Sequence record: NC_027383.1
Strand: one strand, 5' to 3'
Length of the DNA stretch: 44,613 nucleotides
Source: Escherichia phage YD-2008.s
Shown piece by piece: positions 5,192 to 44,613 of this stretch; within the stretch, counting starts at the first letter, position 1, and the number at the start of each line of letters is the position of its first letter. The notes below the pieces were generated by a model, which saw only the letters and a list, made by a program, of their open reading frames with translations, searched no databases and was not told the origin of the DNA. The translations under genes and the position numbers were made by a program.

Positions 5192-5658
5192 AATTACTGA
5201 TTTGCGATTTGGATGGAGTTATTAACGGTTCAAGCGATGCGCGCGCTGACCTGGTGCCGGGTATAAAAACTAAATCCACCTTTTGGGCGAAGTGGCACAA
5301 AGCGCACGTCCGCGAAGACCTGAACATGGATATGCTGCCGCTACTGCGCATGTATAAAGAGCAAGGCTTCGAGATCGCGTATCTGACCAACCGGCAGCGA
5401 GAATGTTGGGACACCACCGCCGAGCAATTGGAGGTCTTCCCGGTAGGCCGGTTGTTTATGCGCCACATGCTGGACGACACCCCGCCGCCTGAGTTTAAAG
5501 CGTGCGCCGTGTTCAAAATGGTATGCTACGCGGACGTGTCGGAACTTGTCATCATTGAAGATTGCGAGAAGAACATCGCGGCAATTCGTCGGGCGTGTGG
5601 TGATTTGGTCCCGAAAATTTACGCAATAAACGTTGCAAAATTCACTTGCAACCAATAG
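5188..5658 (+). CDS. HAD-superfamily phosphatase/nucleotidase-like protein
   Basis: 156 aa; N-terminal DxDGV motif (LICDLDGVINGS) typical of HAD motif I. Confidence 0.55.
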   Translation: MKLLICDLDGVINGSSDARADLVPGIKTKSTFWAKWHKAHVREDLNMDMLPLLRMYKEQGFEIAYLTNRQRECWDTTAEQLEVFPVGRLFMRHMLDDTPPPEFKACAVFKMVCYADVSELVIIEDCEKNIAAIRRACGDLVPKIYAINVAKFTCNQ

Positions 5659-5675
5659 GTTGGTTGCACTATAGT
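5646..5675 (+). promoter_or_regulatory. sigma70-like promoter TTGCAA-N18-TATAGT overlapping an inverted GCAACCAAT/ATTGGTTGC box pair
   Basis: -35 5646-5651, -10 5670-5675; inverted repeat GCAACCAAT agg TTGGTTGCA inside the spacer. Confidence 0.45.
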
Positions 5676-10423: not shown

Positions 10424-13400
10424 CTACCAACTACCTGTGATTTCACCAATCTGCACGCGGAGCACGCCGTTTCCGTCCCTAACACTGATTTGCGTGTTAG
10501 TCTGTTTCATCCCGCCGCCGTTACCGGTTCCCAGGTTGATAAACGTTCCATCTTTCCCTAAGCGCCAGCCGCGCGTGCTGCCGTCGTAGTTATTAGATTG
10601 CAGCGTGTCCGTGATCTGCGCGAAGTTGATAGTCGCGTCCTTGATGCGTGCCGTGTCAATATACACCGCGCCGCCGTCCACGATAAACGCGGACGAAAGC
10701 GACCCGTTAGATGGGTGCATGATGTAGAACTGGTCCGCCTTGAACGCGATGCGGGATTTAACCGCGCCACCTTCCGCAACAACAGAAAGCTGCATACCGG
10801 CATCGTAGTAAGTCCCTTTATACGTCACGCCAGCCTTAAGACTGTACGTGGCGCTGCCACCAGCATGGTTAAACGAGGACGTCATCTTCTGCTCGATAGC
10901 GGCGGACTGCTGACCGAACTGTGTCGCGACCTGGGTCTTATATTCCGCCAGCGCTCCCGCCACGTCTGCGGTTGCCGTTTGTACCTGCTGGATGGCGGCT
11001 TCCTGTTCCCCGAACTTAGCGGCGACAGTTTGCTGATACTGGGCGAACGCTTGTTCCTGTGTGCTCTGTGCGGTCTGCAACGTGTGGATCGCCGCTTCCG
11101 CGTCATCAAGTCGCGTGCCGATCAACGTCTCCAGTTGAGCTACCGCCTTGTGGGCGTCCGCCGCCACGTTATACGCGACCGAGATTTCCGCATAAATACC
11201 CTTGTACTCGGCGCGGGCGTTGAACAATTGCTGCGCATCGGTGAGCATCGCCTCGTAAATACCCTGCGGGATCGTGTTGATTGCTTCCTGGAAGCGTTTA
11301 CCATCCTCGGAAGTCAAGAACTCGTCATCAAGCCCCTTCATGTACTCGTCAACTTTGTCACTCACCTGCCCCTCAAACGGGGCCGACCAGTCCGACAGGT
11401 TGCCGATTTTATCCGCTACGCGTGCGCGCAACTGCTGGTATATGCCGAACTCAAGCGACGTTTGCGCGTACTCCGCGCCAGGATATGGGACGTTTGTTAA
11501 GAATTTCCATTCCGTTTCGCCCGTCTTGCGGACTTCAAGCTCGGTGTAAGAGATATCCGTCGCAGCGTTGTTGTGGTTCCACTTCCACAAAATCTGGTGA
11601 AGGCCAGAAATCGCGTTGGTGATGATTGGTGCGTTAAGCCCACCGAGGCGACCTTCCACCGGCGTGATCGCGGAAGACACCCACGGGGACGAGATTTCGC
11701 CCATGCCAATTGCGCGGACGCGTGCCTGGTAGTTGCCGGAGAACACGTTAGGGATGTGCGCACCATTCGACGCCGTGCGCGGGATATTCACCCAGTCGTT
11801 ACCCCACTGGATTTCCATATTCTGAAGGCTGGTACGTCGCCACTGGATTTCATACACCACGGCATCTTTCACCGGCGGGAAAACAATATCCACGTTGGTG
11901 ATTAGCTGGCCTTGCGATGAAATCTGCGACGGAGTTATGGTCACGGACTCCGGCCCCTTCATTACACCGTCCGGCACTTGCGTAAAGATTCCGGGGTCAA
12001 GGCGAGCGCCATTATCAACGGCATCATATTTGCTATCGTTGTATTCAATCCCGCGCACCGAGAAAGTGCTCGTAGAGTCGTCATATTCCAGGTCGGTGAT
12101 GCGGAATTTTTGCAACTGGATATCGTCGCCATCAACGCAAAACGGTTGGTCTGGAATCGGGTCGGCATCCAGTGCGGTTTTTAGCGTGACCTTGTTGCCG
12201 TTGACGCTGGCGATCTCGCGAGTCTCGACATTTCCGCTATCGGTGCGTACCAGGAACTTATCGCCAGGGCGGAACGTGATTTCGCAGTCCGTGTTCAGTA
12301 CGGTACGCGTTCCGGGGTCTGACAACAGGCGACCGCCGCGAGTCTCGAATCCGCCAGAAATATTAGTATCTGCGATCGCAACTACGCTACCGGGGATAAA
12401 GAATAACCCCTCCATGCCAACTTTAAAGCTGACCTGCTGGTCCAACTGGTTGGATATTAGTGCCCAGTGCCCGCGGCGTTGCGCTTCAGATTCGCGCGTA
12501 CAGCCGATCGCCGTTATATCAAGACGGTTAATCTTATGGCGGCGCACCAGTTCGACGCGCTGGCCCGTCGCTATAGCGTCATCATAGTGGTTTTTCGGGT
12601 TGCCGTATGCTACCGCGAAAGTGGAGTACCGCGTTTTCTGGCTGCCAGATGCGTAGTCGAAGCGCCCATCAATAACCGATGCGTTGGTGATAGTGTGGGA
12701 CACCGCGGCTACTGGTTGGTCACTGACTATATTCAACATCTGGTTGCCCCACCAGGTCATTCCGGCAAAGATGGCAGCCAAATCCTTAAGCACGGTCCAG
12801 GCATCCGTCTGAGACTGAATGTACATATCATTCTTAAAGCGGATTTCTCGACCACCGTTGCCGTCGCTGACCAACTGATCGCAGCGCTGCGCAATCTGGT
12901 AGAGCGCGTACCGGTTTAACATTTGCGGTTTGATACGCCGACCGAGGCCGAAGCGCTCAGTAATACAAATATCGTACCAGTGCCACGCAGGGTTATCCGT
13001 CCATGCGCGTTTAAACGTGCCGTCCCAGTCCCCGGAATAGGTATGATTAATCGGGTCGTAGTTGTTCGGTATTAGAACTTTACGGCCTTTGCACTTGATG
13101 GACACGCGCGGGATGTTCTGGAACGCTTTGGCGTCGAACTCCACAAACAACAGCGCGGTTAGCGGGTAACGCAGGCGGGCGTCGATAATCTCCGTGATGG
13201 ACTGCACCCGGATATCATTAACCACTTTCGCCGATGTGGAGTCTGCCGTTATGCGGTGCACCTCCACGCGCCAGCCGGTGTTAACGTTAGGCGGTAGCTC
13301 GATGCGGTGATCTCGCTCGTACAGCGACATTGTTTTACCAACGGCAGCGAATGTAAACTCACGCGGGTCTGCGTTATCCGTATACACAACGATCTTATAG

Positions 13401-16609: not shown

Positions 16610-19252
16610 TCATCGTTTGTAAAGTACACCACCCGGTTTCGTTGCCTTCACGATCTCGGCCTTCACCGCCTCGGTGATTTGCTTGCCGAACGCCTGCGCG
16701 GTACGGGGGTCCGGCCCGCTGACACTGGTATCCGTTTTACCGGTCCCCGTGTAAACGTTAGTCGTCACGACCATCCCCCCACCTGCGCCAGACGCGGCAA
16801 CGCCCAGTTTCCCGTCCGGCCCGCGCTTCAGTGGCATGATGGCCTCGGGTCCAGCCTCACCCATCAACCCAGCGCCCTTAGCGAACGCCTGGACGCCATA
16901 ACTGAAAAAGGTAGGCTGGCTTACCACTTTCCCGGAATAGGCCGCGAGATTGCCTCCTGCGTACGCTCCGCCGTCCGCATTCTTGGTGAGGCCCGAGAAG
17001 ATAGCGCCGAACAATCCGTTTTTGCCGCCGTCGCCACCGAAAGCGCTAACGATCGACTTGAAAGCCTGCGAGGTAGCCAGCTTGATTAATTCGCTAAGGA
17101 TGGACTTAACCATATCCTTTGCGTTCAGCTTGCCCGTCTCGAAAAACTCGTTCATCGTGTCTTGCATAGCGCTGAACGTGAATTTTGTGAGCGACATCAT
17201 CTGCGTATATCCGTTACCCATATCATCCACACTATCCTTAAGCCCGCGGCTGAAGCCATCCCATAGCGAGGCGTTAGCCCCGGTCTGTGCTTCCTGCACT
17301 TCACGCAGCTTAGACACCGCCTTGTCTATATCGGTATCGTTAGCGCCAACCCTCTTCAGGCGGTCAATTAGCTGCAATTCTTCACGCAGGTTTGCCGCTT
17401 CGCGAGTGGAAAGCGCATAGCCCGCAGCGGTGGCTTTTAGCTCGGCGTTCTGGTTCTTAACGAAGGCATCGATCTGCGCATGCGCCTTAACCTGCTTCTC
17501 TTTCGCGTCCAGCAATTTGGCTTCTTCGACGATCTGCTCGCGCACTTCCTTCACGCGTCCGAATTCGACCATCTGCTGCTTTTCTGCTGCCGTTAGCGCT
17601 CTTTTTTTGCTCGCAGCAATTAACTGCTCATTGTCAGCGATCAGCTTGTTTAATGCTGCTTGAGCGCGTTGCGTGCGGGTCTGCGTAGACGCGTTGGCTT
17701 CGATCTGCTTGCCGGATTCTCGAAGCTGGGCCAGTTCGCTCCGTGCAACTTCCAGCATTTTCATACCGGCATCCACGCGAACAGCCGCGGCCTTCTTCGG
17801 GGCCGGGTCTTTGTAGCGCTCGTTGACCTGCTTCACCGCCTCGGCTAGTTCTTTCTCATCAATAACGCCGCGCTTATTCAGCAAATTGAGGCGGGCGATC
17901 TCGTCTGCACGCTTTTTCGCGTTGGTTGCGTACTCCTTCTCGAACGCAGCGCGGTCGCGGGCGGTGCGGTTAGCCTCCTCGTTCGCCTTTGCGGATTCGT
18001 CTGCGGCGCGGGCGTTGTCTCGCTCCGCACGGTTACGCAGGGTGAGCGACGCCACCACTTTTTCCTGGGCGACCAGTTCGCTGTAAAGCATGTTAATACG
18101 CGCTTTCTGCGCTTCGGTCATAACTCCACCGGCAGCGTTTACCGCTTTCATCTCGGCATAGTAAGCCGTGGTCATGCGCTGCAATGATTCACGCGCTTTC
18201 ATCTCGGACTCATTCGAGGACTGCGCGCGGCCCACATCCAGGATGGCATCCCACATCGATTTAGCTGCCGATGTGACGACGTTCATCGACCGCTCAAGCG
18301 TGCCCATGTTTGACTTGATCTCATTGGTCATGCTGGTGAACGACGCAGCGGCGGTTTTGTTAGCCAACGCAACTGCGTCTGTCTCACGACCCGCATCAAC
18401 CAGCGACTGCACCTGCTGGATCTGCGCTTCGTTTACGACGTGATACTTATCCGCCAGTGCGCGCAAGCCGCCCACGGGGTCAGTGGAGAGCTTCGCCACC
18501 GCCGCCACCACATCCTCGATCGGCTGGCTGGACACCTTCGCAAAGTCATTAACTACCTTAGCCAATGCGCCGAAGTCACCACCCGCTTTCACCCCCGCCG
18601 CCGCCAGCGCCTGGATTGTGTCACGCGTCTTGCGAAATGACCCGCCCATGCGCTCGGCGTTCTCGGACAGCACAAGGATCTGGTTAGCTGTCAGGCCTGA
18701 AATATTACCGGACAGCGCCAGCGTCTTATTAAGCGCCGCCACCTGGTTCTCTGCGCGGGTCGTAATTGCCACCCCTACGCCGAGCGTTGCCGTTAATGCC
18801 GCGATGCCGATCCCTAATGGGCCGAGTGTGCCAACGACATAACGCAGCGTGTTTCCCAGTCCGCCAAACGCCCCAGTAAGCTGCGGTAACTGCTGAAGCA
18901 TAACGCGGTGCACCGGCATACCCATCTCAAGCGTAACCGCGATATCCTGTAACTGGAATGCGGCGTTCCGCGATGCGAATCCCAGGTTTTTGGTCGACAT
19001 GCCTAATCGGCTGGCGAGTCGCTCCTGTTTCGTCATGCCGTCGGCGGCGCGCTGCGATTCAGTCGCTAACTTTTCCATTCCGCCAGCAGCGTCGCCAGTA
19101 ACCTTTTTCGACTTGCCAAGTGTGTCGTTTAATTTTTTTACTTTCTGTTCTGTGTTCTCGGATTTCTGCGCAAATGTGTCCAGCACAGTATTAGCCGTTT
19201 TAATTTGCGCGACGTCCGCCTTGAGCGTGATGCCCGCTGCCTGATCTGCCAT
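16610..19252 (-). CDS. tail tape measure protein
   Basis: 880 aa; long Ala/Gln/Lys/Glu-rich coiled-coil protein with Gly-rich C-terminus, downstream of the G/GT chaperone. Confidence 0.8.
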   Translation of the reverse strand: MADQAAGITLKADVAQIKTANTVLDTFAQKSENTEQKVKKLNDTLGKSKKVTGDAAGGMEKLATESQRAADGMTKQERLASRLGMSTKNLGFASRNAAFQLQDIAVTLEMGMPVHRVMLQQLPQLTGAFGGLGNTLRYVVGTLGPLGIGIAALTATLGVGVAITTRAENQVAALNKTLALSGNISGLTANQILVLSENAERMGGSFRKTRDTIQALAAAGVKAGGDFGALAKVVNDFAKVSSQPIEDVVAAVAKLSTDPVGGLRALADKYHVVNEAQIQQVQSLVDAGRETDAVALANKTAAASFTSMTNEIKSNMGTLERSMNVVTSAAKSMWDAILDVGRAQSSNESEMKARESLQRMTTAYYAEMKAVNAAGGVMTEAQKARINMLYSELVAQEKVVASLTLRNRAERDNARAADESAKANEEANRTARDRAAFEKEYATNAKKRADEIARLNLLNKRGVIDEKELAEAVKQVNERYKDPAPKKAAAVRVDAGMKMLEVARSELAQLRESGKQIEANASTQTRTQRAQAALNKLIADNEQLIAASKKRALTAAEKQQMVEFGRVKEVREQIVEEAKLLDAKEKQVKAHAQIDAFVKNQNAELKATAAGYALSTREAANLREELQLIDRLKRVGANDTDIDKAVSKLREVQEAQTGANASLWDGFSRGLKDSVDDMGNGYTQMMSLTKFTFSAMQDTMNEFFETGKLNAKDMVKSILSELIKLATSQAFKSIVSAFGGDGGKNGLFGAIFSGLTKNADGGAYAGGNLAAYSGKVVSQPTFFSYGVQAFAKGAGLMGEAGPEAIMPLKRGPDGKLGVAASGAGGGMVVTTNVYTGTGKTDTSVSGPDPRTAQAFGKQITEAVKAEIVKATKPGGVLYKR

Positions 19253-19267
19253 TATGCAGTCCCCCTT

Positions 19268-19650
19268 TTTATGCAGTTGCCGTCGGTCATTGTATCAGCG
19301 AATTTAAAACAAACCTTATTCAGTCTCAGACGAGGGGGGCCATTGACCCCCGTCTAGTCTGAAAGACTGGGCTTTGTCCCGCCTGTCCCGATCGGCTAAA
19401 ACCCGCGGCAGCACTGGCTGGGACAGGGGTGCTGTCCCGCTTTGTCCCGCCCAATTCTGCCCCGCTTTTTGTCCCGTTTGTTTTATGCAGAAAAACCGCA
19501 TAGCCATTCACTTTTGAGGGGTGGGACAGATCGGGACAGCACCCCCGTCCCGCTTTTAGTTTATGCAATGAAAGTGAGTATATATGCGGTTTAATGGTGG
19601 CGGGACAAAACGGGACGTCCCGCCTGTCCCGCTTCGTTATGCGGGGTTCT
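19268..19650. repeat. iteron-rich structured noncoding element A
   Basis: ~380 bp without a credible ORF; at least 12 GTCCCGC/GCGGGAC heptamers; hairpin AGACGAGGGGG...CCCCCGTCT; palindromes GGGACAGGGGTGCTGTCCC and CGGGACGTCCCG; core 19307..19480 is homologous to 35962..36135. Confidence 0.6.
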
Positions 19651-20313
19651 GCCGCGCCATTTCATCCAGCGCAACGCGTTCCATTAGCTTGATATCTTTA
19701 AACGCGCGTTGCGCGTTTTCGATGCCGTGCATCTTAAATAACCATTCCAGCACGCCGTAGTCGATGCCGTATGCGCCACCGAATCCGGTGCGCCATTGCG
19801 TGGAGCAATCTGTGAAGACTGCGACTACCTTCGCATTGTCGGGCCATAGTGCAACCGGGGGGCAAACGTCTTCAGGGGTCGCCCCCCATAAACTCGCGGC
19901 TAAATCTTCGGAGGGTGGCGGCGGGCCATAAAAGCGTCGCGCCGCCTCAATTAGTTTTTTTCACGCAATCCCATCAGTTCGAGATAGTACGACGTATGGA
20001 ACACGCCGAACGCGCGCGGGTAGTTGACCACCAGGCGGCGGACGTTCTCCGCGTTAAATTCGTCCGGCAGATTCCAGCCTTCTGCGACGTGCATGATGGC
20101 CTCGACCATAACGTTAAAGCCGTCCGGATCATTGTCGTCATACTCCGACAACTTGCGCTCAGTATCCTGCATGGTCTGCGAAAACTCGTCAATCGGACGG
20201 TGGCGCACGGTAAACGTCATTTTGCCTGGTTCGTTCTCACCAGGGCGCGGGATCTCAATCGGCAGCTTAAAGGTCGGTTTAGGGTCTAGTGTGAAGAGTG
20301 GTGATTTAGCCAT
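19637..20313 (-). CDS. tail assembly chaperone GT fusion via -1 programmed ribosomal frameshift
   Basis: Canonical slippery heptamer A AAA AAC (minus strand, 19960-19954) at the end of G; the -1 frame stays open for ~106 codons to TAA at 19637-19639. Confidence 0.55.
19951..20313 (-). CDS. tail assembly chaperone G
   Basis: 120 aa from ATG 20313 (GGAGAA RBS); ends ...LREKN at a slippery site. Confidence 0.65.
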   Translation of the reverse strand: MAKSPLFTLDPKPTFKLPIEIPRPGENEPGKMTFTVRHRPIDEFSQTMQDTERKLSEYDDNDPDGFNVMVEAIMHVAEGWNLPDEFNAENVRRLVVNYPRAFGVFHTSYYLELMGLREKN

Positions 20314-20335
20314 TATATAATTCTCCAATAAAAAA

Positions 20336-35750: not shown

Positions 35751-35778
35751 TGTTCAGTCCTCTTGTTGGTGTGCAACC

Positions 35779-35807
35779 AATATAGCTGGGTGCGGGCACG
35801 AATGCAA
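35779..35807 (-). promoter_or_regulatory. sigma70-like promoter TTGCAT-N17-TATATT (minus strand) with two GCAACCAATAT boxes
   Basis: -35 = complement of 35802-35807, -10 = complement of 35779-35784; boxes overlap both hexamers. Confidence 0.5.
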
Positions 35808-35961
35808 CCAATATTAATCACGCGCATGAAAAAGTCGATCGCTATCCGTTGCAACTGCAAACTGCATTTCCCGCCCGCCATTCTGCACCTCGCATTGGTT
35901 GCCTAGTTCATCGACGACCGCAATCCGCAACATGCTGCCGTGTATTTTGCAGTCCTGGATT

Positions 35962-36135
35962 TTATGCAGTCTCAGACGAGGGGGTGACAGACCCCCCGTC
36001 TAGTCTGAAAGACTGGGGTGCTGTCCCGCTGTCCCGCTCCTCGCCAGGCCGCGTCATCCGGGGCGGGACAGGGGTGCTGTCCCGCTTTGTCCCGCCTCCT
36101 GTTTGTCCCGCTTTTTGTCCCGCTTACTTTATGCA
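35962..36135. repeat. iteron-rich structured noncoding element B (homologue of 19307..19480)
   Basis: Same hairpin stem AGACGAGGGGG/CCCCCGTCT with a different loop; GGGACAGGGGTGCTGTCCCGCTTTGTCCCGCC shared block; about 7 GTCCCGC copies; bounded by TTATGCAG on both sides; AT-rich stretch follows. Confidence 0.6.
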
Positions 36136-36229
36136 GTTTTATTGCATAACTATTCATTATATTTACATTACACGGCAACCAATGCGACTAACTAAAAACA
36201 CGCAAAACGGCAACCAATGCGCGCAAAAT

Positions 36230-38500
36230 TTAATCTTTCAGGTCATCATCGGTCGCCGAAAGCGTAATGGGGATACCCGATTTGATAACTAAATTCGACG
36301 ACCCATAGATGGCCCCGGTGTGCGGATCTGTATAGAAACCAATCACGCCGCGCTCTACCATATCGTCAATTGCCTTCGTCGATGTGCCACCTTTCGCGAG
36401 TCCCGCCTGGCGGACGATTGCCGATTTGCTGAATCCGGTATGGTCCGGGTTATCTTCCATCAGCTTCTCCAGTGCTGCATAAAGCACTTTCTCTTTTTCG
36501 GTGCGCGGTCCGGCGGTGTTCTCTTCCTTAACTGCGGCTTTTCCTGCGGCCTTCGCCTGTTCTATAGCGAACGGTGCCAGGGCGACCGGTACGAGGTATA
36601 AAGTCTCGTCGCGCGGGGTGGACGCAATTGGTTTGACGTCCCAACCGGCAACTACGTCTCCGAAGTCCGGACCGGTGCTGGTGGACTGGTGCGACGCGAA
36701 CGCTTCTGACTTGCGGAGATCTATCGCCACCTTGCACTTGAGCAGGACGAAGCCACGCGGCGCTTGCTTGATGCCGTTACGTGATTTTTCGTGGTACAGG
36801 TTAAGTTGTCCCGGCTGGTTGTCGTCCGGCTGTTCCAGGAAGAAAGCGGAATCGACAGCGCCATGAAGCGCACCGGACCCGCGCGGGGATCTGCTGCCGT
36901 TTGCACCCTTCGCCGGGTGGTGGATGACGCCCGCACTGCCACCTGTATTTTCCGCAATGGCTTTCAGCGCTTTGACCACTTCACCCATATCGCTGGCGTT
37001 GTTCTCGTCAAACGGTTTAGCCTCGGCGGACCGCAGCGCAACAGTCTGGTTGAGTGAGTCGAACGCCACCAGGCCAACCGGTTCGCCGTTAGCGGTGCGG
37101 TTGATAAAGCTGATAACTTCGCGCAAGCCTGATTTGCTGGTGATATCCCAGCCGCGTGACTGCAGGTCTATAATGTGCAGCTTGTCCAGGTCGTGCTCAT
37201 ATTTAATCTGCAATGCTTCTTTACGCTGGTTGGAGGCTTCGCCACCTTCCGCGTCGAAATAGAAGCAATGAGACTGGACGACCTTCGCACCGCCGAACGG
37301 AATACCCGCGGCAACCGCACCCATCTGCCCCAGCACATAGAATGACTTGCCTATGTTCGACTCACCCGCCATGTACCAGGTCGATTTGAAGTTAATCAGA
37401 CCTTCGATGATCGGGTCGTGCTTACTGAATAGTGCGACCGGCTCGTTATCCAGGTCCGCATCGGTGCACACGCCGTATTCTTCGCCGTCTCCAACCGCAT
37501 CAACAATATGCTCATATAAGGATTCGACTTCCTCGTCGTCCAGCCCTGGAAGGATGGCGGCGATTTGCTTACGGGACATATTGTGTGGCTCGACGTTCAG
37601 GTGGTCCGGGATCCCGATAAGACGTAGCGCCAGGTGCTGGTGTCTATTCAGTTCCGAGCAACACTCGTTGCCGGTGTGCATACACTTGAAACGGATCTCG
37701 CCATCCTTAACCATGATAGCCGTCGACCCTTCGCCGCTGTGCAGATGTTCGTTCGGGCACGGCACTTCATAACCGCGACCGGAAGATAACTCCTCGAATC
37801 CTGCCTGGAAGCACCAGTCCAGAATACCGTCTGCCACTGCGTCGTCGCCCTGGGTAAGCTCGCGGCGTACTTCCTCTTTTTCCACCCCCAGCTTATCCGC
37901 CAGGCGGAGCAGACGCCGCACATTGGCACGTTTGCCGTAGTGGCACTTAATAACTGACTGCTGGTGTGGCAGGTACATCAGGCGGTTTGTGTCTTTCGTG
38001 CAATCGTCGAAGTCCACATCTGACAGACCAAGTTGGTGTAATAGCGCATACTGGACACGGCCCAGGTCTTCAGCCGGGACAGGCTTGTCAGTGAGTACCA
38101 GGAATCGAGCGCAACGCGTGCCGCCTTTCAGTGGGTGACGGTCGCCGGTGGTTGTGTGAAAAACGTGTTCAAGACCCGCGTCGATGAAAGCCTTACGGCA
38201 GCGGCGCAAGGTGCGAGTGTCGGTGCGGTCGATATCGAAGAACAGGATCGAGCGGTCCACCGCACTGGTCTTGCGGCGAAGGCCGTCACTGGTATATGCC
38301 ACGATGCCATCGGCCTTACGCTTGCGGCGCGCATACTCGGCTTTATCTTCCGTCTTATTGATATGCACCGAGGAGATTTCTTTCGCATCTTTGATAAATT
38401 CGAAAAATTCATCGGTGGTCATCTGGAAGTTTTCCGCCCTGGCTTTTTCGCCTTTTTTAGCGGGTCTTGTTACGGCGAATTTAATTAAACTCATGGTCAT
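36230..38500 (-). CDS. DNA primase/helicase (primase domain + P-loop NTPase)
   Basis: 756 aa; Walker A AGESNIGKS and Walker B-like VGLVAFDS in the central region; size and layout of phage primase-helicases. Confidence 0.75.
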   Translation of the reverse strand: MTMSLIKFAVTRPAKKGEKARAENFQMTTDEFFEFIKDAKEISSVHINKTEDKAEYARRKRKADGIVAYTSDGLRRKTSAVDRSILFFDIDRTDTRTLRRCRKAFIDAGLEHVFHTTTGDRHPLKGGTRCARFLVLTDKPVPAEDLGRVQYALLHQLGLSDVDFDDCTKDTNRLMYLPHQQSVIKCHYGKRANVRRLLRLADKLGVEKEEVRRELTQGDDAVADGILDWCFQAGFEELSSGRGYEVPCPNEHLHSGEGSTAIMVKDGEIRFKCMHTGNECCSELNRHQHLALRLIGIPDHLNVEPHNMSRKQIAAILPGLDDEEVESLYEHIVDAVGDGEEYGVCTDADLDNEPVALFSKHDPIIEGLINFKSTWYMAGESNIGKSFYVLGQMGAVAAGIPFGGAKVVQSHCFYFDAEGGEASNQRKEALQIKYEHDLDKLHIIDLQSRGWDITSKSGLREVISFINRTANGEPVGLVAFDSLNQTVALRSAEAKPFDENNASDMGEVVKALKAIAENTGGSAGVIHHPAKGANGSRSPRGSGALHGAVDSAFFLEQPDDNQPGQLNLYHEKSRNGIKQAPRGFVLLKCKVAIDLRKSEAFASHQSTSTGPDFGDVVAGWDVKPIASTPRDETLYLVPVALAPFAIEQAKAAGKAAVKEENTAGPRTEKEKVLYAALEKLMEDNPDHTGFSKSAIVRQAGLAKGGTSTKAIDDMVERGVIGFYTDPHTGAIYGSSNLVIKSGIPITLSATDDDLKD

Positions 38501-38504
38501 AGCC

Positions 38505-38834
38505 TTATTTGGAAGTTTTATTATTGCGTACCCAGGAGCGCACAGTGCTCTGGTTGATTCCGGTTAGCTCGGCGATCATAGCCCAGGATTTACCTTCCTC
38601 ACGTAGACGGATAACCTGCTTTTTGTATTCTTCCATTTCTTCATTGTGCTTTTGCAGCTTGCTGGCTGCCGTACCGTTGAGTAATTCCAGCTTCGCGCGC
38701 AATTCTTTTTCGGTGAGTCGTAGGCGTTCGATTTCAAATAGCACCGCCCCCACGGCATCGGTATACGCCCAGGACCGGCTTGTTTCACTGCAAACAGTCT
38801 TAGTTAACATTTCGATTGCGTCGTTGATATTCAT
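38505..38834 (-). CDS. HTH DNA-binding protein, candidate transcriptional regulator
   Basis: 109 aa; C-terminal HTH SWAMIAELTGINQSTVRSWVRN; coiled-coil middle; first gene after the divergent promoter region. Confidence 0.5.
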   Translation of the reverse strand: MNINDAIEMLTKTVCSETSRSWAYTDAVGAVLFEIERLRLTEKELRAKLELLNGTAASKLQKHNEEMEEYKKQVIRLREEGKSWAMIAELTGINQSTVRSWVRNNKTSK

Positions 38835-38965: not shown

Positions 38966-39003
38966 AGCGCCGTCGCATTTTGCCTCGGCGCTTTTTTTTT
39001 TTT
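38966..39003 (+). terminator. GC hairpin followed by a T12 tract (terminator-like, or UP element of the next promoter)
   Basis: GCGCCGTCGC atttt GCCTCGGCGC then 12 consecutive T (38992-39003). Confidence 0.35.
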
Positions 39004-39014
39004 GAAATTAGTTG

Positions 39015-39043
39015 TTGACTCCCTTCTGCAACCAATCTAATAT
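39015..39043 (+). promoter_or_regulatory. sigma70-like early promoter TTGACT-N17-TAATAT with GCAACCAAT box in the spacer
   Basis: -35 39015-39020, -10 39038-39043; GGAGAT RBS and ATG 39104 downstream. Confidence 0.5.
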
Positions 39044-39103
39044 TCACTCCGTCGACAGGGCATACCGCCCGGACACCTAAACTTAACCAATCGGAGATAC
39101 ACC

Positions 39104-41785: not shown

Positions 41786-41850
41786 GGCAACCAAGCCGAA
41801 CGGGGTGGCTCACAATAACCCCGATACATGTGAAAATGAGGAATTGGAAA

Positions 41851-42633
41851 ATGGCTAAAGTCAACCTGAAAAATGTGCGCGTATGTTTCCTTAATATTTG
41901 GGAACGTGATACCCCTAAACAGGCTGGACAAAAACCGGCATACCGCGCCGTGATTCTTCTGGATAAAGAAGATCCGCAGGTGGATAAAGTGGAAGCGGCA
42001 GCGCGCGCAGCGCTCACCGTCAAGCTGAAATCCGAGAAGAATGCCGATAAGTGGATGGACCGCCACTACGCCCAGGATTCTAAGGAATGCGCAGTCCGCG
42101 ACGGTGACGAGCGTGACGAAGTAACCGAAGAATTTGAAGGCATGTTGTACATCAACGCCAAATCGTTCAAACAGCCGAACATTCAAACGTCACTCGGCGA
42201 GAAGCAGACGGAACAAGGTCTGACTGTAGAAGGCGACGAGATCGAAGGCCAGGAGATCTACTCCGGTTGCTATTGCAATGTGTCCCTGGATATTTGGGCG
42301 TGGAACAATACCAACGGCAAGGGACTCGGTGCTGGCCTTTTGGGTCTGCGCTTCCGTGATGACGGCGAAGCCTTCGGCGGTGGCGGTTCTTCTTGCTCCG
42401 ACGAAGACCTGGGCGACGATGACGAAGATGAACGCCCGCGCAAGTCCAAAAAGTCAAAACGTCGTGATGACGATGACGAAGACGACAAGCCGCGCAAGTC
42501 CAAAAAGTCCAAGCGCCGCGATGACGATGATGATGACGAAGACGAGAAACCTCGTAAACGTCGTAAGCCACGCGATGACGAAGATGAGGACGACGACGAA
42601 GACGAAGCGCCACGTAAACGTCGCCGCCGTTAA
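41851..42633 (+). CDS. putative single-stranded DNA-binding protein with repeated acidic/basic C-terminal tail
   Basis: Start at ATG 41851 with GAGGAA RBS (track start 41830 rejected); N-terminus MAKVNLKNVRVCFLNIWE... resembles phage SSB-like proteins paired with Cas4-like exonucleases; C-terminal tail has four repeats of (D/E)n-PRK(S/R)KK. Confidence 0.5.
   Translation: MAKVNLKNVRVCFLNIWERDTPKQAGQKPAYRAVILLDKEDPQVDKVEAAARAALTVKLKSEKNADKWMDRHYAQDSKECAVRDGDERDEVTEEFEGMLYINAKSFKQPNIQTSLGEKQTEQGLTVEGDEIEGQEIYSGCYCNVSLDIWAWNNTNGKGLGAGLLGLRFRDDGEAFGGGGSSCSDEDLGDDDEDERPRKSKKSKRRDDDDEDDKPRKSKKSKRRDDDDDDEDEKPRKRRKPRDDEDEDDDEDEAPRKRRRR
42412..42630. repeat. ~54-bp tandem coding repeats (4 copies) in the SSB-like gene 3' end
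   Basis: GATGACGA(T/A)GA...CCGCGCAAGTCCAAAAAGTC...CG(T/C)CG(T/C) repeated. Confidence 0.55.
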
Positions 42634-42652
42634 GGGCAAAGCCCACTATTCA

Positions 42653-42676
42653 AGCCCGCTTAATGCGGGCTTTTTA
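42653..42676 (+). terminator. intrinsic terminator
   Basis: AGCCCGC ttaat GCGGGCT followed by TTTTT. Confidence 0.6.
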
Positions 42677-42691
42677 ATAGGACAATGAAAA

Positions 42692-42862
42692 ATGCGCATT
42701 AAAGCCAGCGAAGTAAAAGTCGGAATGCAGGTATGGTCTAAACTGCTGGGCGAGTATTTCACCGTTGCCGAGATTCGCAACAACGGCGAGGAGATAACCC
42801 TTTCCGACGGTATCTTCTCCATGATCGGCAGCGCCGACGCCGTAGTGAGGATTAAGCAATGA
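42692..42862 (+). CDS. possible small protein (56 aa) upstream of the polymerase
   Basis: ATG 42692; stop TGA overlaps the polymerase ATG; below track cutoff. Confidence 0.3.
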   Translation: MRIKASEVKVGMQVWSKLLGEYFTVAEIRNNGEEITLSDGIFSMIGSADAVVRIKQ

Positions 42863-44613
42863 AAGACTTCGAACGCCTGTTTCTCGATACCGAGACATTT
42901 AGCGGGGTAGACCTGAAGAAAGTTGGCGCATACGCCTACGCAGAGCACCCGACAACCGAGATTATGATTTGCACCTACGCCATCGACGAGGGCCGCGTGC
43001 AGACATGGGATTGCACCGAGTCCCCAACAATGCCGCGTGAACTGCGCAAGGCGCTCCGCAGGGTATCCCGCAAGAAAGCAAAAATAGTGATGGCTAACGG
43101 CCTCCTGTTTGACCGCCTGGTCATTCGCGAGAAGTGGGGCATTGACCTGCCAGTGTGCCAGATCGAAGACACCATGATTATGGCCTTTCGACACGCGCTG
43201 CCGGGTGGCCTCGATATGCAGTGCCAGGTGTTGGGCGTTGACGCAGAGCACGCGAAGGATAAGGCGGGCAAGGCGCTGATCAAACGATTCTGTAAGCCAA
43301 CCCCTAAGACCTACAAAATCCGCCGCTACACGCGCGAGACGCACCCCGAGGAGTGGGCTAAATTCCTGCGCTATGCCGCGTTGGATATCATCGCTATGAG
43401 GGAAGTCTATTGGCGCATACCGGACTGGGGTAACACGCCGAAGGAAGACGAAATCCTGCTTATCGACCAGTTGATCAATGACCGCGGCTTCTATGTGGAC
43501 GTTGACCTGGCGCGCGCTGCGATCAAAGCGGTACAGGCGCATAAAGAAGAATTGAAGGAAGAAGCCTGGGAGCGCTTCGGCGGTAAGCTGACAGGCAATG
43601 ACTTCCTGCCAGCGCTGCGGGACCTCGCGCCTGCGTTCACAATCCACAACGCGCAGAAATCCACGCTTAACGACCTGCTGGAAGATCCAGACTTCCCCGA
43701 AGAGGGCAAAGTGCTTATCGAGATGCGCCTCGGTGCGTCATCCACGGCATCGACTAAGTACAATCCGCTCGTTAATGGCCTATCCGCCGATGGTCGCCGC
43801 CGTGGGTGTCTTCAGTATGGTGGGGCAAAGCGCACGCTACGCTGGGCCGGTAAAGGCTTCCAGCCGCAAAACCTGGCGCGTGGCGAGTATAGCGACGACC
43901 ACGAAGGGAAGATTAAACGCCGTGAAGGCGAGAGCGACGTCGCGTTTTGGGTGCGGTCGCACATGCTCACCAACGGCATCAACTCCCTGTTACGTGGGAC
44001 AGCGCACTGGGCGTATGACATATCGAAGCTAACGGCCTCGACCGTTCGCGGGTGCATTATTCCAGCGAAGGGTAAGAAGTTTGTCGTAGCGGACTATTCT
44101 AACGTGGAAGGGCGTGGCCTCGCCTGGATCGCTGGTGAGAAAACCGCGCTAATGGTGTTTAGGGCCGGTCGCGACATTTATTGTGAGACTGCCGGTAAGA
44201 TGTTCGGCCTTGACCCGGAATACATTAAAGCCAACCGCAAAGACCTACGCCAGATTGGTAAGGCGTGTGAGTTGGGACTTGGCTATGGCGGCGGCGTGGC
44301 TGCGTTCTTGCAGTTCGCTAAAAACCTGGGCCTCGACCTTTACGCGATGGCGGACGTAATGAAGGGCACATTCCCCGATCACATTTGGGCAGCGGCTAAA
44401 CGGGGTTATGAGTACGCCCGCATTAACGAAGCGAAGCGACCGCCGAAGCCTGGCAAGAAGGACGAGCGCCCGACTTACATACTGCCGAAAAACGTATGGC
44501 TTACGTGTGATGCGATTAAACGCATGTGGCGAGAGGCGCACCCGAAGACGGTAGCCTTTTGGGCCGAGCTTGAGGACGCGGTGTTGTGTGCAATCCGCAA
44601 TCCTGGCAAAGCG
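42859..44613 (+). CDS. DNA polymerase, family A (Pol I/T7-like), N-terminal 585 aa; runs off the window end
   Basis: 3'-5' exonuclease motif LFLDTETFS, polymerase motif A VVADYSNVEGR, motif B RQIGKACELGLGYGGG; no stop before base 44613. Confidence 0.85.
   Translation, partial: MKDFERLFLDTETFSGVDLKKVGAYAYAEHPTTEIMICTYAIDEGRVQTWDCTESPTMPRELRKALRRVSRKKAKIVMANGLLFDRLVIREKWGIDLPVCQIEDTMIMAFRHALPGGLDMQCQVLGVDAEHAKDKAGKALIKRFCKPTPKTYKIRRYTRETHPEEWAKFLRYAALDIIAMREVYWRIPDWGNTPKEDEILLIDQLINDRGFYVDVDLARAAIKAVQAHKEELKEEAWERFGGKLTGNDFLPALRDLAPAFTIHNAQKSTLNDLLEDPDFPEEGKVLIEMRLGASSTASTKYNPLVNGLSADGRRRGCLQYGGAKRTLRWAGKGFQPQNLARGEYSDDHEGKIKRREGESDVAFWVRSHMLTNGINSLLRGTAHWAYDISKLTASTVRGCIIPAKGKKFVVADYSNVEGRGLAWIAGEKTALMVFRAGRDIYCETAGKMFGLDPEYIKANRKDLRQIGKACELGLGYGGGVAAFLQFAKNLGLDLYAMADVMKGTFPDHIWAAAKRGYEYARINEAKRPPKPGKKDERPTYILPKNVWLTCDAIKRMWREAHPKTVAFWAELEDAVLCAIRNPGKA

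Follow-up and report, generated by a model that had tools for sequence, protein, structure and literature searches.

The genome of Escherichia phage YD-2008.s (NC_027383.1) was analyzed as a single stretch of 44,613 nucleotides (the window), which is essentially one 44.6-kb Dhillonvirus genome with its late genes on the minus strand. Between the genes for the tail assembly chaperone and the tape measure protein lies a noncoding, repeat-rich spacer, here called element A, whose 175-bp core recurs in element B, 16.6 kb away and directly 3' of the gene for the replicative helicase-primase. On balance, and with a confidence only somewhat above even, we favor the reading that the primary replication origin is probably element B and that element A, in the tail operon, is a second copy that arose long ago, both elements being origin-type sites for the phage's own initiator. 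A replication origin or a regulator-binding array was among the roles first proposed for element A (the original prediction), and this proposal now finds comparative support in the position of B next to the helicase-primase gene, the lineage-specific repeats, the AT-rich flanks, and the conserved copy number and repeat cores. The kind of element, a duplicated phage origin with short iterons, is already known. What appears to be new is the origin reading of A and B, the link to a predicted fusion of RepB'-, RepA-, and winged-helix-type domains, the lineage-specific repeats, and a putative internal promoter. The elements and the genes next to them are as follows:

19253 to 19636, no strand: element A, the whole noncoding spacer of 384 bp (from frame translation, the list of open reading frames, and an alignment of 14 copies)
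19637 to 20328, minus strand: tail assembly chaperone G and its −1-frame T extension (from three-frame translation; homologues are annotated DUF1789/DUF1799)
16610 to 19252, minus strand: gene for the tape measure protein, 880 amino acids, with its ATG at 19252
35751 to 36229: element B, the partner of A, adjoining the stop codon of the helicase-primase gene
36230 to 38500, minus strand: replicative helicase-primase, 756 amino acids, candidate iteron reader (phrog_3228, E = 0)
38505 to 38834, minus strand: small helix-turn-helix (HTH) protein, 109 amino acids, alternative candidate iteron binder (Pfam HTH_23/Sigma70_r4_2)

The noncoding gap of about 380 bp that had been reported between the G/T chaperone (GT) and tape measure genes is real and measures 384 bp, against only 40 bp in phage T1, which has a homologous GT. 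The G open reading frame (ORF) spans 19951 to 20328, the T extension stops at a TAA at 19637 to 19639 on the minus strand, and "tape measure chaperone" is the name given to GT homologues in annotations of T1-like phages. No conserved ORF lies inside element A (19253 to 19636). ORFs of 31 to 80 amino acids are called there by ORF finders (e.g., 19316 to 19568, minus strand) and have been deposited in several GenBank records as "hypothetical protein" (e.g., MG581355, and orf18 of NC_012223); we rejected them as coding and consider these proteins spurious, because indels among relatives are not multiples of 3 and break the frame. A BLAST search with positions 19000 to 19900 returned 157 phage records, nearly all of them Escherichia/Shigella Dhillonvirus (including HK578, SSL-2009a, JL1, EP23, and SO-1), the top matches being 96.8% identical. 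Element A itself was matched in 157 records, the same number in which the T domain of GT is at least 80% identical.

The true repeat unit of the elements is the octamer GCGGGACA, which occurs 13 times in the window, with 12 of the 13 inside elements A and B, where 0.25 copies would be expected. The heptamer GCGGGAC that had first drawn attention to the region is likewise enriched against shuffled sequence, as had been proposed (19 copies in the window versus 8.9 expected, a count reached in 0 of 100 shuffles). The claim of at least 12 copies of GTCCCGC/GCGGGAC in element A holds when one mismatch is allowed, only 7 copies being exact, and the claimed spacing of 8 to 12 bp describes some neighbors, 9 to 10 bp apart, within an overall range of 6 to 54 bp. 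Counted by their GGGAC core, 13 sites, together with one degenerate GCGGGGCA, lie within 258 bp (19375 to 19632), in the following arrangement:

19375 to 19477: iteron block 1, with sites at 19375, 19384, 19433, 19443, and 19470 on the minus strand and at 19418 on the plus strand (site map)
19521 to 19632: iteron blocks 2 and 3, with sites at 19521 (plus), 19531 (plus), and 19546 (minus), and at 19600 (plus), 19610 (plus), 19616 (minus), and 19625 (minus) (repeat search and site map)
19556 to 19599: AT-rich stretch between the iteron blocks of element A, G+C content about 0.33 versus 0.546 for the genome

Block 1 falls inside the 175-bp core common to both elements and includes, at about 19458, the degenerate GCGGGGCA; its CGGGAC cores are invariant across the genomes aligned. 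Blocks 2 and 3 are two copies of a unit of about 79 bp (19520 to 19555 and 19599 to 19634), each with head-to-head sites, and a 33-nt arm at 19519 to 19551 is inverted relative to 19420 to 19452. Elements A and B thus each present a noncoding cluster of short repeats of the kind that marks an iteron origin. A search with the DnaA-box consensus gave only one DnaA-like match, TTATGCAGA, with one mismatch, and the IHF consensus gave no site.

In element B, a hairpin at 35967 to 36015 is followed by 7 perfect GCGGGACA octamers between 36022 and 36123 (6 of them on the minus strand and the seventh on the plus strand). Beside these iterons, whose G+C content is 0.75, lies an AT-rich stretch of about 60 bp (36120 to 36180; G+C content 0.28 to 0.30) that holds the palindrome TTATGCA-N7-TGCATAA; element B also has ATTGGTTGC repeats. 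By BLAST, the 175-bp core of A (19316 to 19490) matches 35962 to 36136 of B with 81.6% identity over 179 columns (E = 6e-39). The homology reported earlier for a 174-bp core (19307 to 19480 with 35962 to 36135) therefore stands, while its coordinates in A were about 10 nt too far left. Mean identity is 0.88 among copies of A, 0.87 among copies of B, and 0.79 between A and B (0.81 within one genome). A and B accordingly form separate orthologous sets, so the duplication is older than the genus, and both copies have since been retained, perhaps with occasional gene conversion between them.

Both loci are already annotated in the record of Sodalis phage SO-1 (NC_013600/GQ502199) as repeat_region features, "region A" between gp16 and the tape measure gene and "region B" after the helicase-primase gene, with direct, inverted, and palindromic repeats and a possible role noted. 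The annotation of region A states its sequence similarity with region B, and the SO-1 copy is 86% identical to element A of YD-2008.s. No published analysis or test of regions A and B was found in the literature searched. Region B varies in length from 466 to 659 bp among Dhillonviruses. In some of them the helicase-primase stop codon is directly followed by an additional 54-bp ATTGGTTGC unit that contains the palindrome GATATGGGGATTCCCATATC, and in HK578 and SO-1 region B contains about 175 bp of extra sequence, ATG initiated and resembling a small ORF, just before the next gene.

Conservation was expressed as mean pairwise identity across 14 Dhillonvirus genomes, in which the copies of element A are 386 to 411 bp long in alignment. 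Besides the iterons, the comparison covered three further features:

19321 to 19369: hairpin, or imperfect palindrome, of element A, 49 nt (from minimum-free-energy folds and the 14-genome alignment)
19289 to 19297, minus strand: box TGATACAAT, which resembles an extended −10 promoter element, about 37 nt before the ATG of the tape measure gene
19252, 19269, 19483, 19561, 19637 (as TTATGCG), 35962, 36129, and 36143: sites of the TTATGCA/TGCATAA motif

Identity rises from 0.66 at 4-fold synonymous sites of the tape measure gene to 0.78 in the spacers inside A, 0.90 in the iteron octamers, 0.95 in the TTATGC motifs, and 1.00 in the TGATACAAT box; it is 0.99 in the hairpin arms and 0.73 in the hairpin loop. 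The number of sites is 6 direct and 1 inverted for B in 14 of 14 genomes and 13 to 16 for A. By these measures, element A is under strong purifying selection. Its presence in close relatives, on which the original prediction had staked its case, is borne out by the 157 matching records and by conservation beyond that of synonymous sites.

The linkage of the repeats to the helicase-primase gene was examined in six lineages, represented by three phage records and three metagenomic contigs. A clear short-repeat cluster lies 3' of the gene in five of the six, with five different repeat sequences in all; in the sixth, a metagenomic contig at 46% protein identity, the cluster is less clear. In a metagenomic phage at 68% identity, the sequence directly 3' of the gene still has GCGGGACA repeats together with the same hairpin; in this sister lineage (L041), region B also contains a (CACACG)n microsatellite (12590 to 12615) downstream of the hairpin. 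The other lineages, at 43 to 48% protein identity, have different short repeats in the same 3' position. These are GGGGAGA (7 copies, the genome's only such cluster) in Salmonella phage vB_STM-ZS, which has no chaperone-tape measure gap, and TTGCGAGT (6 to 9 copies) and TCGCAAT (11 copies) in two metagenomic phages at 48% identity. Edwardsiella phage eiAU, the nearest outgroup that has both modules (GT 46% and helicase-primase 44% identical), possesses large noncoding gaps at both positions, and the two gaps have CGCCCCG repeats and a 25-nt block in common. The first residues of the predicted recognition helix change along with the repeat (TSTK/SSTK/TNTT, DRYK, NYKK, and HYGK). Linkage to an initiator gene and co-variation with it, as expected of an iteron origin, are thus found for B; this comparison does not apply to the location of A.

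The chaperone-tape measure gap of eiAU is about 1.1 kb long (42120 to 43015 and 1 to 221). A canonical intrinsic terminator stands right after its GT gene, an annotated reverse-strand ORF occupies 42365 to 42718 with the reverse strand open beyond it, and a promoter-like stretch rich in GCAACCAAC is followed by iterons and a hairpin.

The helicase-primase has a Pfam AAA_25 domain at residues 359 to 533 (2.4e-19; RepA-like) and a Cys/His zinc motif. A PDB sequence search with this protein gave nothing significant, and a match to 1g8y was weak. AlphaFold (AF2) models were built on a 40-sequence alignment and compared with the PDB by Foldseek. The N-terminal domain (predicted local distance difference test [pLDDT] score of 86) best matches the PrimPol of cyanophage S-2L (6zp9, E = 3e-5) and also matches the catalytic domain of RSF1010 RepB' with initiator DNA (3h25, E = 5.5e-3, probability 0.99). 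The C-terminal domain (about residues 665 to 756) is predicted to be a winged helix (core pLDDT of 80 to 90), with matches to the winged helices of MarR, H1/H5, Rio2, and ORC. From these predicted folds, the protein appears to join a RepB'-type primase of the archaeo-eukaryotic primase (AEP) type, a RepA-type helicase, and a DNA-binding winged helix. Homologues had to be collected with the full-length query, as the C-terminal 157 amino acids alone recovered one fragment only. The gene for the 109-residue HTH protein lies just upstream, and relatives have a small HTH gene in the same position. This protein would be an equally good candidate iteron reader, and its family also changes between lineages.

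Taken together, element B appears to have the anatomy of an origin-initiator cassette, with lineage-specific repeats, a 60-bp AT-rich stretch, a conserved hairpin, and linkage to an initiator gene. Protein binding, melting, priming, and replication start at A and B are what we infer from this anatomy. The initiator, either through the C-terminal winged helix of the helicase-primase or in the form of the small HTH protein, would bind the octamers, and binding would melt the adjoining AT-rich DNA. The RepA-like helicase domain would then load and the RepB'-like primase domain would prime, possibly at the conserved hairpin acting like an ssi-type signal. Element A would have arisen long ago as a duplicate of the 175-bp core of B, extended by two more 79-bp iteron units, and would have become fixed in its place between the GT chaperone and tape measure genes before the genus diversified. 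Its function would be that of a second origin or, when bound, of a barrier to replication forks, as has been proposed for oriR of phage SPP1. Genetic work on a related phage touches the same genes. HK578 mutants that escape the OLD defense map to the helicase-primase gene and to the promoter of its operon, which ties these genes to replication initiation; the same preprint treats them as replication-initiation genes without mapping an origin, and OLD is proposed to sense origin-derived DNA structures (bioRxiv 10.64898/2026.07.10.737580).

Several observations weigh against an origin at A and B. The iterons are 8-mers at irregular spacing, unlike the classical 17- to 22-bp plasmid iterons, and the AT-rich stretch of A is modest (40 bp, G+C content 0.33). 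Both elements stand at boundaries of transcription units, which fits regulation equally well. GC skew tracks the direction of transcription and gives no origin signal, and no experimentally mapped Dhillonvirus origin was found in the literature searched. The co-variation of repeat and helicase-primase is confounded by phylogeny and is shared equally by the upstream HTH gene, which also differs between lineages. Moreover, in Kagunavirus and Jerseyvirus the homologous genes lack a noncoding gap on their 3' side, so that the layout is not universal in the family; their upstream noncoding regions contain unrelated repeats.

The hairpin belongs to the same side of the account. As originally described, a long hairpin with a like stem and a different loop is present in both copies (19321 to 19369 in A and 35967 to 36015 in B). 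Its arms in A consist of outer CAGTCT/AGACTG and TCAGAC/GTCTGA pairs and an inner GGGGG/CCCCC pair around 7 variable apical nucleotides. Folding gives a z score of about −3 on either strand (−33 kcal/mol and z = −2.95 for the RNA of the hairpin region of A), and 95% of stem columns but 14% of loop columns are invariant across the 14 genomes. Selection on structure, which had been argued from this contrast, is not demonstrated by it: the 18 predicted stem pairs are all either invariant or broken, and the 14 distinct hairpins show 0 compensatory changes. The covariation test is uninformative, as the stems do not vary within the genus, and a palindromic protein-binding site in duplex DNA would leave the same pattern of invariant or broken pairs. 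The within-genus data would thus fit a folded hairpin and a duplex palindromic operator alike, and given the lack of compensatory changes, the hairpin of A may be such an operator, placed just upstream of the tape measure −10 box. Only the cross-genus comparison hints at structural selection. In the hairpin before the eiAU tape measure gene, the inner stem is nearly identical (GACGGGGGT...CCCCTCGTC), whereas the outer stems differ yet pair.

Signals for transcription surround the hairpin. The TGATACAAT box lies 23 nt downstream of it, and all 9 of its columns are invariant in the 14 genomes while the adjoining bases vary. A scan of both elements with the sigma-70 consensus reported no promoter, the box having been missed because it has no −35 match. 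It probably restarts transcription for the tape measure and distal tail genes, and since the hairpin lies just upstream of it, a transcriptional role is likely to be at least part of the function of A. The TTATGCA/TGCATAA motif occurs 15 times in the window, with 6 copies in A and B (0.29 expected, P about 6e-7). It stands ahead of each iteron run, overlaps both the tape measure start codon (TGCATAATG) and the GT stop codon, and is also found in the eiAU and vB_STM-ZS elements; one copy, the TTATGCAGA mentioned above, is one mismatch off the DnaA-box consensus. Both the box and this motif had escaped the original prediction, which is otherwise partly supported. A terminator scan of A and B found none on the minus (gene) strand, the sole terminator-like site being on the antisense strand. 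After the large hairpin comes GAAUAAGG... in A and GCAUAAAA... in B; with no U tract in either, the hairpin was rejected as an intrinsic terminator. A short CGGGACGTCCCG palindrome followed by TTTT stands after the GT stop codon and is annotated as a terminator in the HK578 record.

A purely transcriptional account would take the octamers and the palindrome as operator or activator sites for a phage regulator, e.g., the 109-residue HTH protein, which would time a promoter after the replication genes (at B) and an internal promoter for the tape measure and tail-tip genes (at A), with no role in replication. The surroundings suit it well, for B lies between the replication genes and the small-ORF, lysis, and structural genes, and A lies inside the late operon with an invariant extended −10 box next to its hairpin. 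The eiAU terminator after the GT gene implies that transcription must restart before the tape measure gene, HK578 is annotated with a terminator at the same place, invariant arms around a free center without covariation are the signature of a dimer-binding palindrome, and the HTH gene varies between lineages as the repeats do. Against this, 7 to 16 sites in both orientations far exceed what an activator or repressor usually needs, and no other promoter region of the genome contains the octamer. B has no recognizable promoter where A has its −10 box, and the promoters downstream of B carry the genome-wide ATTGGTTGC instead. Lineage-specific repeats at the 3' end of a helicase-primase gene next to a very AT-rich stretch are, moreover, the usual layout of an origin and its initiator. 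As a complete explanation we hold transcriptional control to be rather unlikely, but it is a serious competitor of the origin reading. An RNA element, i.e., an intercistronic hairpin with inverted repeats for processing, stability, or attenuation that uncouples chaperone from tape measure, or a small RNA, is improbable. The region would be transcribed with the late operon if read-through occurs, its hairpin folds stably, its loop is free to vary, and a weak terminator-like palindrome with TTTT follows the GT stop. However, Rfam 15 at gathering thresholds gave 0 matches in the whole window, and relaxed thresholds gave only microRNA-type hairpins at 18 to 24 bits versus gathering scores of 37 to 105, so that the structured-RNA role proposed earlier has no matching family; a tRNA/tmRNA search found none. 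The lack of both a U tract and compensatory substitutions also speaks against an RNA, and 13 short repeats in both orientations, with a copy beside the helicase-primase gene, would be left unexplained.

The deposited genomes NC_073074 (UAE_MI-01), NC_073059 (CHD5UKE2), LR990702 (Maverick), OX460974 (Kente), and KF772233 (eiAU) start or end inside the element, and small terminases bind repeated sites, which could mark the element as a hotspot of recombination or a site recognized in packaging (pac/terminase). At query positions 106, 95, 74, and 174, however, the break points of the four Dhillonvirus records all fall inside blocks shared by A and B and are therefore best explained as assembler contig breaks at a repeat, for which reason we rejected the reading as termini or pac site; the ends of the eiAU record overlap within a duplicated GCAACCAAC stretch, and two sites that are separated by 16.6 kb and distant from the terminase genes are a poor fit for a pac site. 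We give packaging or recombination very little credence. Least probable of all is a small selfish element, similar to a miniature inverted-repeat transposable element (MITE), inserted twice in the genome, which had also been proposed. It would account for two homologous copies and for the CTGCATAA-like sequence that flanks the 175-bp core on both sides and resembles a target-site duplication. Since TTATGCA/TGCATAA is also present elsewhere inside the elements and in eiAU, it is more plausibly a functional motif than a duplication scar. The 22-mer of the hairpin is found only in viral contigs of Dhillonvirus size, at most twice per contig and always on the same strand, with 0 matches in 185,579 bacterial and archaeal species genomes. 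All genomes examined have the elements at the same two loci, copies of A cluster with A and copies of B with B, and purifying selection is strong. A MITE or other small mobile element was thus rejected, there being two fixed loci per genome, separate orthologous sets, and no bacterial copies.

The preferred reading, an origin at B with an ancient copy at A, has partial counterparts in known systems. The closest of them in function is SPP1, whose two origins are about 13 kb apart: gene 38 contains oriL, and the series of virion-assembly genes is interrupted by the intergenic segment with oriR; oriR binds the same origin protein, and bound gp38 is proposed to stall forks and trigger the switch from theta to sigma replication and concatemer synthesis (PMC6316719). 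SPP1 is likewise a lytic siphovirus of about 44 kb with two similarly organized regions of repeats and AT-rich DNA (PMC6316719), a dual layout that A and B reproduce as two homologous regions of this kind, one at the initiator gene and the other intergenic among virion-assembly genes and bracketed by transcription signals. The chaperone-tape measure gap of eiAU resembles the moron-plus-oriR island of SPP1. SPP1 differs in having a separate origin binder (gp38), loader (gp39), and DnaB-type helicase (gp40) that work with the host primase, where YD-2008.s has a single helicase-primase; oriL lies inside gene 38, whereas B is 3' of its gene, and oriR is not between GT and tape measure genes. The likeness is one of layout and not of sequence comparison, and because it is functional, we have not classed the element as an SPP1-type member.

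The α protein of phage P4 is a multidomain primase-helicase with a Toprim-type primase and a C-terminal winged helix that binds origin repeats (PMC4234260). A C-terminal winged helix is shared as a fold class, although 1KA8 is not among the top fold matches of the YD-2008.s protein. The α helicase belongs to superfamily 3, and P4 has octamer repeats of both orientations, distributed over two separate cis regions (ori and crr). With an AEP/RepB'-like primase and a RepA/AAA_25-like helicase in place of the Toprim and superfamily-3 types, the YD-2008.s protein has different primase and helicase types, and the resemblance to P4 is therefore one of architecture and not homology. The archaeal plasmid pRN1 has a small repressor gene, a gene for a prim-pol/helicase/winged-helix protein, and an essential 3' stem-loop origin in this order (orf56/orf904), a layout also found in some bacteriophages, and its origin has no iterons according to the authors (PMC4234260). 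YD-2008.s shares the same gene order of small DNA-binding regulator, replication protein, and stem-loop directly 3'; pRN1 differs in its superfamily 3 helicase, the lack of iterons, and a single origin copy. Plasmid RSF1010 initiates with separate RepA, RepB', and RepC proteins, of which RepC recognizes the iterons (PMC4234260). The likeness to RSF1010 in protein domains consists of a primase fold like RepB' (3h25) and a helicase family like RepA (AAA_25; weak 1g8y), with three separate proteins there and one fused protein here. The oriV of RSF1010 combines AT-rich DNA and direct iterons of about 20 bp with the ssiA and ssiB hairpin priming signals on opposite strands. Such iterons and two opposed ssi hairpins are not found in YD-2008.s, whose iterons are 8-mers in both orientations and whose elements have a single hairpin each, oriented alike in A and B.

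The genome also contains 18 copies of a second motif, GCAACCAA(T)/ATTGGTTGC, versus about 1.4 expected, at sites that include 971, 3727, 3744, 5648 to 5667, 9111, 25224, 35240, 35773, 35804, 35895, 36175, 36210, 39028, 41771, 41787, and others. Most copies lie outside long ORFs and beside or overlapping −10-like boxes, e.g., in the spacer of TTGACT-N17-TAATAT at 39016 to 39045, and a perfect palindrome, GCAACCAA-tagg-TTGGTTGC, spans 5648 to 5667. In eiAU, GCAACCAA occurs 23 times, in 15 cases as GCAACCAAC. This looks like an operator or promoter motif of a phage regulator, separate from the GCGGGACA iterons. Upstream of the HTH and helicase-primase genes, 38968 to 39045 contains a GC hairpin with a T12 run (terminator-like on the plus strand), directly followed by the good sigma-70 promoter TTGACT-N17-TAATAT, which faces rightwards. 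Another repeat cluster, of dense CTTCGTC/CGTCATC/ATGACGA at 42350 to 42450, lies under ORFs on both strands (41830 to 42633, plus; 42167 to 42646, minus) and looks ordinary. Translated, the minus-strand ORF gives Arg/His-rich nonsense. The plus-strand ORF is probably the real gene and, by synteny with the SO-1 record, may encode a Gp2.5-like single-stranded DNA-binding protein.

It is tempting to extend the origin reading further, on what can so far be only a tentative footing. A one-polypeptide, RSF1010-like machinery, with RepB' primase, RepA helicase, and winged-helix reader, might act on sites made of octamers and a priming hairpin, and copy A might serve as a functioning second origin or a programmed barrier to forks that times the switch to concatemers and couples replication to transcription of the tail genes; the palindromic iterons might even be the structures sensed by OLD.

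Dhillonviruses are among the most frequently isolated E. coli phages and are used in therapy collections and defense-system screens. For such work, one practical point is that the 175-bp repeat shared by A and B breaks short-read assemblies, and another is that the calling of ORFs inside element A should stop. Origin mapping, minimal replicons, and engineering become directly testable in these phages with a candidate that comprises two loci, a defined 8-bp site, and two proteins that might bind it. If true, the origin reading explains why the otherwise adjacent chaperone and tape measure genes are split in Dhillonvirus and Eiauvirus. It would also provide a Gram-negative counterpart to the oriL/oriR puzzle of SPP1 and would bear on the escape of HK578 from OLD.

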